Shown piece after piece: positions 4,122-59,348 of a DNA stretch of 64,000 nucleotides. Made by a program: the position numbers and the translations under genes. This DNA comes from an uncultured Eubacteriales bacterium (lineage in GTDB: Bacteria > Bacillota > Clostridia > Lachnospirales > Lachnospiraceae). The notes beneath the pieces are model-generated. The model was not told the DNA's origin. It worked only from the letters and a program-made list of their open reading frames with translations, and ran no database searches. The DNA lies in assembly GCA_900545175.1 (NCBI GenBank), contig UQYF01000005.1, forward strand, positions 29,890-93,889. Direction: 5' to 3'. Position 1 is the first letter of the stretch, and each line of letters starts with the position of its first letter.

Positions 4122-5843
4122 ATGTCAGGATTATCAGCGATTAATACAGTATGGGTGTTAATAGGTGCGGCACTGGTTTTCTTCATGCAGGCGGGCTTTG
4201 CAATGGTTGAGGCAGGCTTTACAAGAGCTAAAAATTCAGGAAATATCATTATGAAAAATCTTCTTGATTTAGCCATAGGAACAGTAATCTACTGGTTTGT
4301 CGGATTTGGGATAATGTTTGGAAGCGGAACTGTTATAGGAACAATCGATTTTTTCATAACAGGAAATTATGACAATATTCTTCCGGATGGTGTGTCAATA
4401 TGGACATATGTTATTTTTCAGACAGTATTCTGTGCGACAAGTGCAACAATAGTGTCGGGAGCGATGGCAGAGAGAACTAAGTTTTCTGCATATTGTATCT
4501 ACAGTGCGGTTATTTCACTTATTATTTATCCTGTGTCAGGTCACTGGATATGGGGCGGCGGCTGGCTGGCACAGCTTGGATTCCATGATTTTGCAGGTTC
4601 GACTGCGGTACATATGGTAGGCGGTGTTGCAGCTTTGGTAGGCGCTAAGATGCTTGGAGCGCGCATCGGAAAGTATGACAAGGATGGAAATTCAAGGGCG
4701 ATACCCGGACACAATATAGTTATAGGTGCACTCGGAGTGTTCATTTTATGGTTCTGCTGGTTCGGCTTTAACGGCTGTTCTACTGTGAATATGGAGGGTG
4801 ATAACATTGCTCTTGCCGGAAGGATATTTATGAATACCAACTTAAGCGCAGCGGTTGCAAGTGTCACAACAATGATTTTTACATGGATAAGGTACAGAAA
4901 GCCTGATGTATCTATGACACTTAACGGAGCTTTGGCAGGGCTTGTCGGAATAACAGCCGGCTGCGATATGGTAAGTCCGGCAGGTGCCGCATTTATAGGT
5001 CTTGTATGCGGGATTGTGATTGTGCTTGCGGTAGAATTCATAGACAGAAAATGTAAAATTGATGACCCGGTAGGTGCAATCAGTGTACACGGTGTATGTG
5101 GTATGCTTGGCACTGTCATGACAGGTCTTTTGTCAGAGTCGGAAGGACTGTTTTACGGAAAAGGATTTGGATTTTTCGCAGTTCAGGTTCTCGGTGTGGC
5201 GGCAGTTATTTTGTGGGTTGTGATTACTTCATTTATATTGTTTAAAATTATCGACAAGACGGTCGGACTGCGCGTTTCAAAGCGTGAGGAGATTGAAGGA
5301 CTTGATACTAATGAACATGGACTTTCAAATGCCTACGCTGACTTCCTTCCGAATGTTCAGGTTGATTCACTCGCAGGTGATTTTGCACAGGTCAGTGGAC
5401 TTGAGAAGCCTACAGATGTCCCTGTTGATGTTGCGATTCCGATTGCAGCTGCTTCGGATTACAGTGAGGCTGATAAGAAGGGAATTCTTACAAGAATAGA
5501 TATCATATTAAAACAGTCAAAATTTGAAGAACTAAAGGATGCGATGAACGATATCGGTGTAACAGGCATGACTGTCACACAGGTGCTTGGCTGTGGTATA
5601 CAAAAGGGTGCTACAGAGTATTACAGAGGCGTTCCTGTGGACATTCAGCTTCTACCGAAAGTGAAGGTTGAGATAATAGTTGCAAAGGTTCCTGTTGAGC
5701 AGGTTGTATCAACTGCAAGAAAGGTTCTCTACACAGGACATATCGGAGATGGCAAGATATTTATCTATGATGTGAGGGATTGTGTGAGAGTGAGAACGGG
5801 CGAAACAGGATATGACGCTATGCAGGGAATAAATGAAGCGTGA
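4122..5843 (+). CDS. amt: Ammonium transporter (Amt/MEP family) with a C-terminal fused P-II (GlnB/GlnK-like) nitrogen regulatory domain
   Basis: N-terminal ~400 aa is a multi-TM Amt; C-terminal ~110 aa matches P-II (GMTVTQVLGCGIQKG...RGVPVDIQLLPKVKVEIIV...GDGKIFIYDV...RVRTGE). Confidence 0.85.
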   Translation: MSGLSAINTVWVLIGAALVFFMQAGFAMVEAGFTRAKNSGNIIMKNLLDLAIGTVIYWFVGFGIMFGSGTVIGTIDFFITGNYDNILPDGVSIWTYVIFQTVFCATSATIVSGAMAERTKFSAYCIYSAVISLIIYPVSGHWIWGGGWLAQLGFHDFAGSTAVHMVGGVAALVGAKMLGARIGKYDKDGNSRAIPGHNIVIGALGVFILWFCWFGFNGCSTVNMEGDNIALAGRIFMNTNLSAAVASVTTMIFTWIRYRKPDVSMTLNGALAGLVGITAGCDMVSPAGAAFIGLVCGIVIVLAVEFIDRKCKIDDPVGAISVHGVCGMLGTVMTGLLSESEGLFYGKGFGFFAVQVLGVAAVILWVVITSFILFKIIDKTVGLRVSKREEIEGLDTNEHGLSNAYADFLPNVQVDSLAGDFAQVSGLEKPTDVPVDVAIPIAAASDYSEADKKGILTRIDIILKQSKFEELKDAMNDIGVTGMTVTQVLGCGIQKGATEYYRGVPVDIQLLPKVKVEIIVAKVPVEQVVSTARKVLYTGHIGDGKIFIYDVRDCVRVRTGETGYDAMQGINEA

Positions 5844-9446: not shown

Positions 9447-9599
9447 AAATGCTGTGCAGGACTTAAAAATTCAGCTTGACAATTCATATGCGTTTAATTA
9501 TTATTAGTTCATAAAATAAGAGATGCGAAGCATCAATTTTTTATGAGCATGAAGCGAAAGCGGATTGCAGATATCATTGACTATATGAAAAAGCTATGA

Positions 9600-9905
9600 A
9601 GGGAAGAAGTAGATATTTTTAGGAGCCTACAGAGAGCTGCCGGGTGGTGAGAGGCGCACAGGTAACGGAATATTGAATACATCCTAGAGCATTGCACCGA
9701 AAGAAAGATAATTTTTTTAGTAGGCTGTGACGGCAGCACCCGTTATAGTGCAGAGGTATCGATTAAAAGTGTGAAGGATTACTTCTGAAACAGCTTTTGG
9801 TCTGTACTTGGTGAGGCACCGGATGTGAGTTCGGTGTGAAGTAAGGTGGTAACACGTTTATATACGTCCTTACAGTAGTAATCGCTGCTGTAAGGATTTT
9901 TTTAT
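9600..9905 (+). ncRNA. T-box leader riboswitch (likely tyrosine-specific) controlling tyrS
   Basis: Stem-I like region with AGAGAG/GGTGAGAG; candidate specifier loop GAA-UAC-A; T-box-like AAGGTGGTAACACG; terminator TCCTTACAG...CTGTAAGGA plus T7 at about 9868-9905. Confidence 0.55.
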
Positions 9906-22975: not shown

Positions 22976-23184
22976 TGCGTAGATTTTTTAGACAATTTGA
23001 TTGATGAGATTATTTATGACAGATATTGTTTGTTAAATAAAAAACAATATTTTATATAATGACCACTTAGCACTTGAAATTTTTGTCGAAATATGAGAAA
23101 ATACAATTAATTGCGGAGAGTGGTGCCAGACACGCCACGCAGACAGCTTCGCAAATGGAATCTGATTCTGAAAGGAGTTTTACA

Positions 23185-23877
23185 ATGATTTATTCACATG
23201 AAGTAGAAAAGATGTGTACAGTCGCTCAGGGCGTACATCATGGCGCAGCGCCGGTTCCTACAGAAGGAAAATGGGTAAGAAATAAGCAGGTTACAGATAT
23301 TTCCGGTCTTACACACGGTGTAGGCTGGTGTGCACCACAGCAGGGTGCCTGCAAGCTTACTCTTAATGTTAAGGAAGGTATCATCCAGGAGGCTCTTGTT
23401 GAGACTATCGGATGTTCAGGTATGACACATTCAGCAGCTATGGCAGCTGAGATTTTACCTGGCCTTACAGTATTAGAGGCTATGAATACAGACCTTGTAT
23501 GTGACGCTATCAACACAGCTATGAGAGAGCTCGCATTACAGATTATCTACGGCAGAACACAGAGTGCTTTCTCTGAGGAAGGTCTTCCTGTAGGAGCAGG
23601 CCTTGAGGATCTTGGTAAGGGTCTTCGTTCACAGGTTGGTACAATGTATGGTACTCTTAAGAAGGGACCACGTTACCTTGAGATGGCAGAGGGCTATGTA
23701 ACAGGAATCGCTCTTGATGATGAGGGTCAGATTATCGGTTATCAGTTCGTAAGCCTTGGCAAGATGACAGATTTCATCAAGAAGGGTGACGATGCTAACA
23801 CAGCTTGGGAGAAGGCTAAGGGTCAGTACGGAAGAGTTGCTGATGCAGTAAAGATCATCGATCCAAGAGTAGAATAA
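23185..23877 (+). CDS. Conserved hypothetical Cys-containing protein that pairs with the GGGtGRT protein (possibly a NifU/IscU-like scaffold fold)
   Basis: RBS GAAAGGAG; conserved cysteines (WCAPQQGACKL, IGCSGMTHSA); strongly biased codon usage; immediately upstream of the GGGtGRT gene. Confidence 0.55.
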   Translation: MIYSHEVEKMCTVAQGVHHGAAPVPTEGKWVRNKQVTDISGLTHGVGWCAPQQGACKLTLNVKEGIIQEALVETIGCSGMTHSAAMAAEILPGLTVLEAMNTDLVCDAINTAMRELALQIIYGRTQSAFSEEGLPVGAGLEDLGKGLRSQVGTMYGTLKKGPRYLEMAEGYVTGIALDDEGQIIGYQFVSLGKMTDFIKKGDDANTAWEKAKGQYGRVADAVKIIDPRVE

Positions 23878-23893
23878 TCAGGAGGACAGTATA

Positions 23894-24904
23894 ATGGCTT
23901 TATTTGAATCATATGAAAGAAGAATTGAGAAGATCAATTCTGTTTTAAATAGCTATGGAATCGCTTCTATCGAGGAAGCTGAGAAGATTACTAAGGATGC
24001 CGGCCTTGATGTTTACAACATGATCAAGGGCGTTCAGCCAATTTGTTTTGAGAACGCTTGCTGGGCTTACATTGTAGGTGCTGCAATCGCTATTAAGAAG
24101 AATGCACGCAAGGCTTCAGAGGCTGCTGCTGCAATCGGTGAGGGCTTACAGGCTTTCTGTATCCCTGGTTCTGTTGCAGACCAGAGAAAGGTTGGTCTTG
24201 GTCATGGTAACCTCGGTAAGATGTTACTTGAGGAAGAGACAGACTGCTTCTGCTTCTTAGCAGGCCACGAGTCATTCGCTGCTGCAGAGGGTGCTATCGG
24301 TATCGCTAACAATGCTAACAAGGTACGTCAGAAGCCGCTCCGCGTTATCCTTAACGGACTTGGCAAGGATGCTGCCCAGATTATTTCAAGAATCAACGGC
24401 TTTACATACGTTGAGACAGAGATGAATTATCACACGGGAGAGGTTAAGGAAGTATTCCGTAAGTCCTACTCCAACGGTCCTAGAGCTAAGGTTAACTGCT
24501 ACGGCGCTAACGACGTAACAGAGGGCGTTGCAATCATGTGGAAGGAGAATGTTGATGTATCCATCACAGGTAACTCAACTAACCCTACAAGATTCCAGCA
24601 TCCTGTTGCAGGTACTTACAAGAAGGAGAGAATTGAGGCAGGCAAGAAGTATTTCTCAGTTGCTTCAGGCGGTGGTACAGGCCGTACACTTCATCCAGAT
24701 AACATGGCAGCAGGTCCTGCTTCCTACGGTATGACAGATACTATGGGACGTATGCACTCAGATGCTCAGTTCGCCGGTTCTTCATCAGTTCCTGCCCACG
24801 TTGAGATGATGGGTCTTATCGGTATGGGTAACAACCCTATGGTTGGTGCTACAGTTGCAGTTGCAGTTGCCATTCAGGAAGCTGCTGACAACAATAGATT
24901 CTAA
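23894..24904 (+). CDS. GGGtGRT-family protein (conserved protein of unknown function)
   Basis: Eponymous motif SVASGGGTGRTLHPDN present; RBS AGGAGGA; strongly biased codon usage. Confidence 0.8.
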   Translation: MALFESYERRIEKINSVLNSYGIASIEEAEKITKDAGLDVYNMIKGVQPICFENACWAYIVGAAIAIKKNARKASEAAAAIGEGLQAFCIPGSVADQRKVGLGHGNLGKMLLEEETDCFCFLAGHESFAAAEGAIGIANNANKVRQKPLRVILNGLGKDAAQIISRINGFTYVETEMNYHTGEVKEVFRKSYSNGPRAKVNCYGANDVTEGVAIMWKENVDVSITGNSTNPTRFQHPVAGTYKKERIEAGKKYFSVASGGGTGRTLHPDNMAAGPASYGMTDTMGRMHSDAQFAGSSSVPAHVEMMGLIGMGNNPMVGATVAVAVAIQEAADNNRF

Positions 24905-24979
24905 GAGAATCTATTATAAGTTCTAATATTGTGCGGTTTTAAAGGGTTTGCGTTAGTGTGAAAAGCTACGAAAAAGGAT

Positions 24980-25038
24980 ATGTAACTAACACGTAACTAA
25001 CAGGTAACTAACACACGTAACTAACAAATAACTAACAA
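24980..25038 (+). repeat. Five direct copies of GTAACTAACA (the last is ATAACTAACA) phased at 11/11/13/11 nt, in the 3' region of the GGGtGRT gene
   Basis: Copies start at 24982, 24993, 25004, 25017 and 25028, read directly. Confidence 0.8.
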
Positions 25039-25043
25039 AAATA

Positions 25044-25088
25044 AAGAGGGTCACAAGCACTGAAAAGTGTTTGAGATCCTCTTTTTAA
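25044..25088 (+). terminator. Probable intrinsic terminator (imperfect stem plus T5)
   Basis: AGAGGGTCACAAGCAC...GTGTTTGAGATCCTCT followed by TTTTT. Confidence 0.45.
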
Positions 25089-25537
25089 TAATGTGAAAAC
25101 AGCCTCAACCAAGCATCTGATATAAGATTATTTTATCGGTTTAGGTAAAGCGGATTGCGAATGTCCGCTTTACAGAGCATCAGTATAACAAAAATAAAAA
25201 TGCATTTGCATTTATAGAGCATATGTTCGGCAATAGCCAAGATGGTAAAAATATACATATAAAAATATAAAATGATTGCTTGAAACACATGATAACTCAT
25301 GAATTGCCGGAAAGACTTGAAGTATGCCGAATATGAAGTATAATAAATTTGATACACATGAAAAATGAAGCCGCAGTAAAACTTCTAAAGAAAGATGTGA
25401 GCATTTTTATAAGAGATTTTTGCTGCACACAGAGCAGGTTTGAAAGAGAAACTTTCAAACTATGTATTGGTGGCAGTACGGTGAGCGGTGCATGCAGTAT
25501 GCAGAGGGATAAAAAATGAAAGCGAGGGAGAAATATT

Positions 25538-26131
25538 ATGGGGCGTTTATTATTGAACAGCAGAGGACTTAATACAAGGCTTGGATGTCAGCAGATTCTT
25601 GAATGCATTCGGGATGAAAAGCTTGAAGAGAAGCGCATGTTCATCGTGTCGTATACTCCTTATGGAGTGGATGATTTGATTGTCAGTAACTGCATAGAGA
25701 TACTTGGCTTTAAAAAAGAAAATCTGTATCTGTCCGCAAATGGGATTCCGGAAGATGTGATACCGGATTACATATTTGTGACGGAAGGGAACACGTTTGA
25801 AGTGTTAAAGTATATGAGAGATAACGAGCTTGTGGATTATATCAGGAGCTTGATGAAGGGTGGTGCAGTTACATATATCGGCAGCTCGGCGGGAGCTATG
25901 CTTGCAGGCGCAGATATAATGCTTGCGGGAGATTTTGATAGAAATTTTGTCGGGATGACCGATTTTACCGCACTTAATTTATTTGATGGCACGATTATTC
26001 CGCATTATGAGCCGGAATATTTAGAAAACTATATCAGAAATACGGAGGCACATGTTATTAACAGGTATTCTAAGATTTTATCTGTATCAAATGAGGATGT
26101 GCTTGTGATTGACAATCAGAATGAAATATAA
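25538..26131 (+). CDS. Peptidase S51 (dipeptidase E / class I glutamine amidotransferase-like) family protein
   Basis: GSSAGAM motif around the nucleophilic Ser, ~200 aa, fold-level similarity to PepE. Confidence 0.6.
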   Translation: MGRLLLNSRGLNTRLGCQQILECIRDEKLEEKRMFIVSYTPYGVDDLIVSNCIEILGFKKENLYLSANGIPEDVIPDYIFVTEGNTFEVLKYMRDNELVDYIRSLMKGGAVTYIGSSAGAMLAGADIMLAGDFDRNFVGMTDFTALNLFDGTIIPHYEPEYLENYIRNTEAHVINRYSKILSVSNEDVLVIDNQNEI

Positions 26132-26268: not shown

Positions 26269-27504
26269 ATGAGTGAGGTACTGTACTGGGTTATGGGCAT
26301 AATAGCCAAGATTCATAATTATATAATGCATTTAAATGATAAGTTTGAGTATAATTTTTCGGATAAGGATATGCATTTCCTTGTTATAGGTTTACTTGGA
26401 ATGCTGATGATTTTTGTTGTTTATCCGCTTTTTAAATGGCTTGCACAGAAAAAACATATCATGGTTATAGCGTGGATATATGTGTTTACACTTATTCTTG
26501 TTATCACATTTGCAATCGAAATCGGACAGAAAATCAGCAATACAGGAAACATGGAATTTGCGGATATAGTATTAGGTATTATGGGATTCATTGTTATGTT
26601 TGCGATATTTGCCGTGTTCCGCGGAATATACCATGGAATAAGATGGCTTTTTTCGCATAGATTCGTGAAGAAGGATTCTGCTTCTGAAGTCAATGACAAT
26701 GTGAATGAAAATGATGATACAAATAGCAACAATGTAAAAAAGAGTGACAATATAAGCAATGGCGCTTATGCTGATATGGAAAAAAGAAATGACACAATAA
26801 ACAGAAAAAATAATATAAACAACAATATAAATAATAAAATAAATAACGATGCCGGTTACAATCTGAAGATAAGTAAAATATTATCGGATAATACTAATGC
26901 CAATAATAAAATAAAGAAAAATGAAGGCAAAAATATAGATATAACTGGCTGTAAAAACACAGAAAATACAGAAACCAATAATAAAAATAATAATACAGAA
27001 AATAATAATAAAAATTATAATGAAAAGGACAATTATGGCTATGCACAAAAGCGTCAGAAAAATGAACCAAGCGTAAAGAGAGGCACGCATATGGCTAAGC
27101 CTGAAATATCTGAAAGCAATATCAGAAAATCTGATAGGATGGTTAGACCGGCTTTTGACATTGACAAAACAGGTGTTGATAAACAAAATATCGGCAATTC
27201 GGATATAAGTAAATTTGACAGTGATATAGCTGACATAGATATGGTAAGCGAAGATGAGAATAACTTAGCTGTTTCAGGTACGGATAATTTTAATGCATAT
27301 GAATATGTAAATAGAGAGGATGCCGATAAGCTTGACGTAGAGAATGCGGCTGCCAAAGATGTGATATATCAGCCGGATGATGACGAGCCGGAATATAAGC
27401 CTGACGGAGATTATGAGTATGAATTCAGTGAAGCCGATATACAGATTATAGAGGAACTGGCTAAAGAGGAAGAAGCAGTTTTAAACAGTGAGAATGATAC
27501 TTAA
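26269..27504 (+). CDS. Hypothetical membrane protein with an extended Asn-rich low-complexity region and an acidic C-terminus
   Basis: 3-4 N-terminal TM helices, then NNINNNINNKINND / NTETNNKNNNTENNNKNYNE tracts; very AT-rich codons. Confidence 0.5.
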   Translation: MSEVLYWVMGIIAKIHNYIMHLNDKFEYNFSDKDMHFLVIGLLGMLMIFVVYPLFKWLAQKKHIMVIAWIYVFTLILVITFAIEIGQKISNTGNMEFADIVLGIMGFIVMFAIFAVFRGIYHGIRWLFSHRFVKKDSASEVNDNVNENDDTNSNNVKKSDNISNGAYADMEKRNDTINRKNNINNNINNKINNDAGYNLKISKILSDNTNANNKIKKNEGKNIDITGCKNTENTETNNKNNNTENNNKNYNEKDNYGYAQKRQKNEPSVKRGTHMAKPEISESNIRKSDRMVRPAFDIDKTGVDKQNIGNSDISKFDSDIADIDMVSEDENNLAVSGTDNFNAYEYVNREDADKLDVENAAAKDVIYQPDDDEPEYKPDGDYEYEFSEADIQIIEELAKEEEAVLNSENDT

Positions 27505-58949: not shown

Positions 58950-59320
58950 GTCTACCAGTTGGCTGAATAATCGCGGCTGCATATGTCGAAAGACCGCAGG
59001 TGAGGAAAGTCCGGGCTTCATAGGGCAGGATGCCGGATAACGTCCGGTGGAGGTGACTCTAAGACCAGTGCAACAGAAATATACCGCCACAGGCGTAATG
59101 CCGAGGCTCCGCAAGGACGTGGTAAGGGCGGAAGGGCAGTGTAAGAGACTACCGCCTGTCTGGTAACAGACAGGGCACATGTAAACTCCATCCGAAGCAA
59201 GACCGAATAAGAGACAGTGACGTGGCCCGCCAGTCTCAGGTTGGTCGCTTGAACCTGTTGGCAACAGCAGGTCTAGATAGATGATTATTCACGACATAAC
59301 CCGGCTTACAGGCTGACTGG
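58950..59320 (+). ncRNA. rnpB: RNase P RNA (bacterial type B)
   Basis: GAGGAAAGTCCGGGCTTCATAGGGCAGGATGCCGGATAACGTCCGG (P4 5' strand) ... AGGGCGGAAGGGCAG ... ACATAACCCGGCTTACAGG (P4 3' strand); P1 pairing of CCAGTTGGCTG with CAGGCTGACTGG. Confidence 0.85.
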
Positions 59321-59348
59321 TGGTTATTTACCAATAGGAGATTTTTCG

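Follow-up and report, generated by a model that had tools for sequence, protein, structure and literature searches.

Arm-type integrase sites are a known kind of element and are biologically ordinary. The integrases of Tn916 and Tn1549 recognise repeats near the transposon ends through an N-terminal DNA-binding domain with a three-stranded sheet, and defective prophage or ICE remnants can keep att sequences without an integrase, as the CIMEs of streptococci do. The arm sites of phage lambda number five, the P'1-P'3 cluster included, and outside the Gammaproteobacteria very few heterobivalent systems have been characterised (bioRxiv 10.1101/2023.11.06.565760). The system of the Lactobacillus phage mv4 has been described as the first of its kind to be fully characterised in the Bacillota. 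Its integrase, of the Tn916 family, binds direct repeats of 11 bp that are adjacent to one another and located at the arm ends of attP; in binding assays on the P1-P2 / core / P'1-P'2 arrangement, Int was stabilised on the core only by 11-bp repeats adjacent in this way (bioRxiv 10.1101/2023.11.06.565760).

We analysed a stretch of DNA of 64 kb, referred to here as the window, in which five tandem 10-bp units follow a GGGtGRT gene. Judged from its sequence relationships, this array is very likely an orphan P'-arm site cluster for the N-terminal domain (N-domain) of a heterobivalent tyrosine integrase, belonging to Lachnospiraceae prophages or integrative elements that insert behind GGGtGRT. 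An intact element would present, in order, the GGGtGRT stop codon, a short host 3' UTR with the core, a pre-array segment, three to five 10-bp sites, a hairpin and the converging 3' end of int. This geometry would be that of lambda attL, in which P'1-P'3 stand beside int.

The repeat array and its surroundings

The array, at 24982-25037 (no strand assigned), reads GTAACTAACA c GTAACTAACA g GTAACTAACA cac GTAACTAACA a ATAACTAACA, and its five 10-bp units are P'-like putative integrase sites on the strength of the sequence read, Tandem Repeats Finder, shuffles and comparison with viral contigs. GTAACTAACA starts at 24982, 24993, 25004 and 25017 and ATAACTAACA at 25028, giving start-to-start distances of 11, 11, 13 and 11 and spacers of C, G, CAC and A (1-1-3-1). 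The first-pass annotation had reported five copies at these distances, and both the sequence read and Tandem Repeats Finder (24982-25038, period 11, 5.0 copies, score 75) agree, with the correction that four copies are exact and the fifth begins with A, not G. It had also placed the array between the stop codon at 24904 and a terminator, as is the case: the array lies 77 nt 3' of the GGGtGRT stop codon and 5 nt 5' of a hairpin at 25043-25086, with ~500 nt to the next start codon.

With at most one mismatch allowed, the 10-mer matched the 64-kb window 11 times, against 2.96 ± 1.55 matches in shuffled sequences, and none of 100 shuffles reached 11. Five of the 11 matches fall inside the 56-nt array. 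At two mismatches the window outside the array stood at chance level, and a search across the window for a second set of array units found none. To judge by its sequence, neither chance nor plain microsatellite slippage accounts for the array. Nor is it a CRISPR array, as had been stated at the outset, since that class needs repeats of ~23-50 bp with unique spacers of similar length and the units here are 10 bp with spacers of 1-3 bp.

The GGGtGRT gene (PF14057; 23894-24904, plus strand; Pfam E 6.9e-193) is the host gene whose 3' end would serve as the integration target. Its protein is 85-93% identical across 80 species-level genomes, mostly of Lachnospiraceae, and identical copies occur even in different genomic contexts, for example in contig L007; the identical proteins come from human-gut metagenome assemblies. 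In the literature GGGtGRT appears mostly in metaproteomic studies, several of them of gut and rumen. The upstream partner in the operon is an ORF of 267 aa from the ORF list (23074-23877, plus strand), which also precedes GGGtGRT in the strain loci. It has no Pfam family and a weak NifU/IscU-like match (NCBIfam NifU_clost, E 1.3e-4, well short of the curated cut-off). The neighbours of the array are a GH2 beta-galactosidase, the NifU-like ORF, GGGtGRT and an S51 peptidase, and this chromosomal context is kept between strains.

The hairpin at 25043-25086 (plus strand), recognised by folding and as an inverted repeat, has the form of an intrinsic terminator, with 19-nt arms (25043-25061 and 25066-25084), a 4-nt loop and a T-run after it. 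It is the sole terminator-like structure after GGGtGRT, with none between the stop codon and the array, and a simple terminator scanner missed it. An A-run before the hairpin and the T-run after it suggest that termination may act in both directions. Folding returned the terminator hairpin only and left the array mostly unpaired.

Several features of the surroundings were observed in passing. Between 26000 and 30000 of the window the G+C content falls to 0.35-0.37; there an ORF of 411 aa without a Pfam family (26269-27504) contains AT-rich tandem repeats of period 12 and period 27, with Tandem Repeats Finder arrays at 26812-27026, and the stretch possibly encodes a surface protein, foreign or evolving fast. 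Ordinary annotations at 9587-9874 and 58955-59324, namely a T-box leader (110 bits) and an RNase P RNA of bacterial class A (291 bits), confirm the Firmicute origin of this low-GC window. In one strain contig (L001, ~4600-4680, corresponding to window ~25511), the leader upstream of the S51 peptidase gene contains a 75-bp tandem duplication that takes in a hairpin (GTTTGAAAGAGAAACTTTCAAAC) and the GC-rich segment after it. The S51 leader may therefore be a structured regulatory element.

Period-11 arrays and a tyrosine integrase family

Across the set of 80 species-level GGGtGRT loci, period-11 arrays occur within 350 nt after the GGGtGRT stop codon in ~18 loci, versus ~4 weak arrays in the other ~420 kb. 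About three quarters of the species with a near-identical GGGtGRT gene have no array, and in most species a terminator alone is present. The units differ between species (GTATGATACA, GTAATAGACA, GTAGCACACA, GTAATACACA, GTAGGTAACA and CAGGTAACA) and share the frame GTA-N4-ACA. In L021, five copies of GTATGATACA are separated by A, G, CAC and A, close to the C, G, CAC and A of the window. Conservation in orthologous loci, which the first-pass annotation had proposed as a check, was found for the spacing architecture, which is kept across differing units, but not for the presence of the array. In six loci (L014, L020, L036, L050, L080 and L132) the array lies 3' of the operon's own terminator.

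In several array loci a converging ORF ends just past the array in a tyrosine recombinase C-terminus, ...GHxxxDVTExVYTxRD..., and the converging protein is a member of Phage_integrase (PF00589), PHROG_1. A tblastn search of the 80 GGGtGRT loci placed every integrase match in a locus that has an array, and the 3' end of int falls there 122-233 nt beyond the stop codon; seven matches were intact or large genes and two or three were C-terminal remnants, and the GGGtGRT loci that have no array gave no match. Exact tandem GTAACTAACA was present in 50 IMG/VR viral contigs, of which 41 encode the integrase family. The int 3' end lies 4-140 bp past the array in ~36 of these 50 contigs, and the GGGtGRT C-terminus lies 91-125 nt upstream of the array in nine. 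Ten contigs (L095, L096, L097, L104, L115, L117, L120, L129, L132 and L139) have the layout of the window itself beside int, namely five copies, 1-1-3-1 spacing, a last unit ATAACTAACA, an A-run and a hairpin. The prophage contigs have an analogous hairpin between the array and the int stop codon.

The reverse comparison, which started from the integrase alignment and covered the viral loci whose sequence extends 90 nt or more past the int stop codon (n = 51), found an array of at least three copies after that stop codon in 41. Nearly all of these 41 arrays have the spacing 11, 11, 13(, 11), with at least eight different unit sequences among them. Arrays adjoin int whatever lies upstream, be it GGGtGRT, a tRNA fragment or another terminator. 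Contig L135 has two pairs of GTAACTAACA sites 241 bp apart, with a tRNA 3' fragment between them and int directly after the second pair, which together resemble an entire attP; paired sites that flank a core-like segment were seen this once with the GTAACTAACA unit.

Further unit copies were noticed in some of the contigs. L134 contains, at ~9744-9830, a longer degenerate run of AACAACTAACA-like units with a period of ~11, and no integrase of the array-linked family was detected in the 13.6 kb of that contig that were searched, so that a similar repeat stands there in another context. Single extra copies, exact or with one mismatch and in the same orientation, occur 150-250 bp upstream of some main arrays: at -151 in L098, L100, L101, L105 and L137, where the copy falls within a GGGtGRT-like coding end, and at -172 to -254 in L104, L109, L128, L131, L133 and L140. 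These single upstream copies may be additional arm sites, if the contigs represent attP, or coincidence.

Unit sequence and integrase sequence were compared for 26 non-redundant integrases, with residues 1-66 taken as the N-domain. Unit similarity followed N-domain identity (Spearman 0.76), and the partial correlation was 0.64 (permutation p 0.001) when the catalytic domain was controlled; the corresponding value for the catalytic domain, with the N-domain controlled, was 0.10 (p 0.23). L164 and L169, whose respective units are GTAACTAACA and GTAAGACACA, have integrases that share 94% identity in the catalytic and 90% in the core-binding domain, against 64% in the N-domain. Conversely, the integrase of L095 shares 30-33% identity with those of L093, L109 and L128 outside the N-domain and 67-78% within it, and all of them use GTAACTAACA. 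The repeat sequence therefore co-varies with the N-domain and not with the catalytic domain. The array adjoins the 3' end of int, ~1 kb from the N-domain coding sequence; physical linkage would therefore predict the opposite, so the coupling looks functional.

Pfam assigned only Phage_int_SAM_3 and Phage_integrase to the homologues and left residues 1-65 without a family. Searched against Pfam at E up to 10, the N-domain gave sub-threshold matches to AP2 (E 0.044) and Arm-DNA-bind_4 (E 0.08), and against the PDB neither phmmer nor a profile search gave anything other than spurious matches. An AlphaFold model of the homologue P0121 (mean pLDDT 84, N-domain pLDDT ~66-88) has beta-strands at 9-12, 21-31 and 38-48, a helix at 51-62 and a disordered linker at 64-67, followed by a helical SAM-like core-binding domain and then the catalytic domain. 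Three strands and a helix make up the fold of the arm-binding domains of the lambda and Tn916 integrases. Foldseek against the PDB gave full-length lambda Int (1z1b_A) as the best match of the model (E 1.8e-10, over approximately the whole chain and driven mostly by the catalytic domain), followed by Tn1549 Int. The integrase is thus predicted to have a separate N-terminal domain of the arm-binding type before its core-binding and catalytic domains. Each 10-bp unit would be bound by one such N-domain of three beta-strands and a helix, while the same protomers would contact the core through their core-binding and catalytic domains, and this bridging of arm and core would build the intasome.

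The most serious rival to these integrase arm sites is another protein of the recombination module, an excisionase/RDF or Cox-like factor that would oligomerise on the phased direct repeats. RDFs do bind phased direct repeats in att arms, as in the RdfS, L5 Xis and P2 Cox systems, and linkage would make an RDF gene near the 5' end of int co-vary with the N-domain. Yet the genes at the int 5' flank are heterogeneous, with no conserved small excisionase gene adjacent, and L164 and L169 have a near-identical upstream neighbour and catalytic domain while both N-domain and unit differ. The array also stands on the P' arm, the one nearer to int, whose lambda counterpart has sites for Int and IHF only, and its unit size and tandem arrangement match the arm sites of mv4 Int. 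Binding by such a factor is in our estimation quite unlikely.

We give still less credence to a role at the RNA level, in which a 3' UTR or a 3'-derived small RNA would present repeated sites for an RNA-binding protein or act as an sRNA sponge. The array would be well placed for this, as it is transcribed between the stop codon and the sole terminator, is predicted to be largely unpaired and so accessible, and is kept in some form by all sampled strains of the species; the appearance of GGGtGRT in several metaproteome studies also implies that its 3' UTR may be an abundant RNA. However, the unit differs from species to species and also inside species, following the integrase N-domain, the array follows the operon's own terminator in several species, and arrays stand beside int behind unrelated upstream sequence, the tRNA fragment included. 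Moreover, about three quarters of the species manage a near-identical GGGtGRT gene without an array. Rfam gave no match when its gathering threshold was applied, and matches at chance level only when E was relaxed to 10. RNA-protein binding sites, which the first-pass annotation had offered as its alternative, are thus left unsupported, and we consider the RNA-level role, which the array does not require for its explanation, very improbable.

The weakest reading, a functionless slippage microsatellite or else iterons or response-regulator boxes, draws on the difference in copy number between strains (four in L001 versus five) and on the phasing of about one turn that is typical of iterons and of OmpR/PhoB-type boxes, but appears extremely improbable since slippage alone would not preserve an irregular 11-11-13-11 spacing that recurs with at least eight unit sequences, no replication initiator or response-regulator gene lies nearby and the array is not in a promoter. 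The first-pass annotation had named variation in copy number, or absence from relatives, as the mark of a microsatellite; this was literally found but does not denote one here, because the 11-11-13-11 architecture is conserved across different units. Its idea of helically phased repeats that bind a protein on DNA appears to fit the evidence, but the proteins it proposed do not, and integrase arm sites fit instead: the array sits upstream of a terminator rather than in the promoter expected of response-regulator sites, and iterons were rejected with no rep gene among the neighbours and a chromosomal context. As the motif was found nowhere else in the window beyond chance, there is no regulon. 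CTAACA-N5-CTAACA bears a resemblance to the TTAACA repeats of B. subtilis PhoP; PhoP and DnaA boxes were considered and rejected, the unit varying between species and lacking a promoter or origin context.

Strain alleles and the polymorphic cassette

Ten contigs encode exactly identical GGGtGRT protein, nine of them in the genomic context of the window and one (L007) elsewhere, with a NUDIX gene downstream and yet another GTAAGACACA-type array. The window-type array of five copies is present in L004, L009 and L010, and a four-copy version in L001. An alternative array, GTAAGACACA c ACAATACACA t GTAAGACACA tag ACAAGACACA c GCAATACACA, is found in L002, L003, L005, L006 and L008; its layout, 10-1-10-1-10-3-10-1-10, is that of the window, and its terminator hairpin is different. 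Within the species, copy number and unit sequence vary while the architecture is constant. All ten loci carry an array without an integrase, with at least two specificities (the GTAACTAACA and GTAAGACACA types), and neither empty nor occupied sites were found among the ten.

Alignment of three alleles delimited a polymorphic cassette with identical flanks on both sides, corresponding to window 24953-25277 and measuring 325 bp in the window and ~150 bp in the alternative allele. To its left, the host 3' UTR at 24905-24952 (plus strand) is common to all alleles of the species in the allele alignment, which are identical up to 24952 except for one SNP and divergent beyond. The right end of this host 3' UTR, ~24937-24952 (TTTTAAAGGGTTTGCG), is probably the attB/core where host sequence meets element sequence. 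In many species ...TAAAATAAGGG.TT-like motifs follow the GGGtGRT stop codon. Over loci L011-L090, many species were seen to have within ~40 nt of the stop codon a 3'-UTR motif consisting of GAAA... and then T-A-A-A-A-T-A-A-G-G-G-y-T-T, and this common motif is probably a conserved attB/core targeted by the integrase family. Separately, a perfect 10-bp inverted repeat with a 3-nt gap, AATAGATTCT / AGAATCTATT, spans the GGGtGRT stop codon at 24893-24915. It is host sequence, because it lies to the left of the point where the alleles diverge, and could be an RNA hairpin or an operator.

The cassette opens with a pre-array segment at 24953-24981 (plus strand; TTAGTGTGAAAAGCTACGAAAAAGGATAT) that contains a recurrent GTGTGAAAA motif and appears to be element-derived by its similarity to prophage attL. 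Together with the array it is 87% identical over 106 nt to the prophage attL in L102, the best match, which covers ~24937-25041 only, and segments resembling it occur in L092, L094 and L099. The recurrent motif, (A/G)TGTGAAAA, stands ~20-25 nt upstream of the arrays in the window (24956-24964), L092, L094, L099 and L102, and a near copy of it lies at 25089-25099 of the window (TAATGTGAAAA). The motif could serve an accessory factor (IHF/HU or Xis-like), or it could be an arm site that is inverted and degenerate. Partial complementarity to the unit is seen in the segment upstream of the array in some alleles (GTTAGTGTG in the window, CTTAC...TGTGTC in the alternative allele). A reading of this GTTAGTGTG 'anti-repeat' as RNA covariation was given up in view of the link to the integrase; it may represent a site that is inverted or degenerate, or one for an accessory factor.

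The rest of the cassette, 25087-25277 (no strand assigned), was defined by the three-allele alignment and a repeat search. It contains an echo of the array 3' end, TAACAAAAATAAA, at 25186-25198, in addition to the echo of the pre-array motif at 25089-25099, and speculatively it may be a second, more decayed att-arm remnant. A second hairpin was observed there at 25145-25173, with a perfect 10-bp stem (GTAAAGCGGA ... TCCGCTTTAC) and no T-run. Exact searches of the viral contigs for the hairpins at 25043-25086 and 25145-25173 found neither, and no progenitor phage with the window's exact hairpin or with the right-hand part of the cassette (25087-25277) was found among these contigs. The sole metagenome match to the cassette is the same chromosomal locus.

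We class the window copy as an orphan or relic because tblastn with 16 integrases detected no integrase or remnant of one, at E<10 on 24900-25700 or at E<1e-2 on the 64 kb. The array is read as an orphan attL arm because, besides the missing integrase, its similarity to attL is partial (~24937-25041) and there is no core duplication; the repeat search for a duplicated core or an attR flanking the cassette gave only imperfect repeats of 11-16 nt, none convincing. We infer that the integrase physically binds such arrays and that the relic arose by deletion of the element. The integrase and the rest of the element would thus have been lost, leaving the attL arm in the cassette, where it would now be transcribed as the 3' UTR of the GGGtGRT operon, with the cassette hairpin supplying the terminator. 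That this hairpin is the sole terminator of a conserved operon may be why the deletion stopped just past it. Without a related integrase acting in trans, the array of the window is most likely inactive in recombination.

An orphan array in ten out of ten loci with the exact GGGtGRT protein is not an obvious outcome of simple neutral decay. In our judgement it is unlikely that selection maintains the orphan arm arrays and that they are more than decaying relics. If it did, a row of putative high-affinity Int N-domain sites beside an attB core might act as a decoy or an attL mimic, with the possible effect of stopping or diverting lysogenisation by cognate phages, or of capturing satellites that lack int, while supplying the terminator of the operon.

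As integrase arm sites, the repeats would mark a prophage integration hot-spot behind the GGGtGRT gene, and the present 3' UTR of the operon, probably with its terminator, would be of mobile-element origin and not a host regulatory device. The family of Lachnospiraceae phage integrases to which they point is apparently large and uncharacterised. Its arm signature, three to five tandem 10-bp sites at 11-11-13-11 spacing and no further than ~100 bp from the int stop codon, is easy to spot and could help to delimit prophage ends and att sites in gut metagenomes. The correspondence between N-domain and site would form a natural data set for learning arm-binding specificity.

Comparison with known att systems

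The mv4 system resembles the present one in coming from a phage of Bacillota with adjacent 11-bp direct repeats, and L135 repeats its order of pair, core-like segment and pair as pair, tRNA fragment and pair over ~260 bp. The sites of mv4 come in pairs, whereas the elements that target GGGtGRT would have three to five on the int-proximal arm, and the likeness is drawn from site layout, the target being tRNA-Ser in mv4 and the 3' end of GGGtGRT here. Tn916 and Tn1549 have arm-type repeats (DR2), and the core-binding and catalytic structure of Tn1549 Int is the second-best structural match to the model. They are, however, conjugative transposons of low target specificity, and the arrays described here are on viral (prophage) contigs with what appears to be site-specific insertion.

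The relic state of the window copy is paralleled by the CIMEs, in which an att-derived segment is likewise kept at an integration hot-spot without a recombinase gene and is polymorphic between strains. CIMEs, however, have an att site at either end and are mobilisable in cis, whereas the remnant in the window measures 325 bp and no second core or attR was found.

The likeness to lambda is tempered by several differences. Three to five adjacent sites spaced 11-11-13-11 stand here in place of the three of the lambda P' arm, the consensus is another one with a frame of GTA-N4-ACA, the elements belong to a Firmicute host and target a 3' UTR behind a protein-coding gene, and the window copy has neither an integrase nor the rest of an element. 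What the two have in common is a set of ~10-bp tandem direct repeats in an att arm beside the 3' end of a converging int, and an integrase with three domains (arm-binding, core-binding and catalytic, as predicted here) whose model has lambda Int as its best PDB match. The proposed prophage order of host gene, core, arm repeats and int is likewise that of lambda attL.
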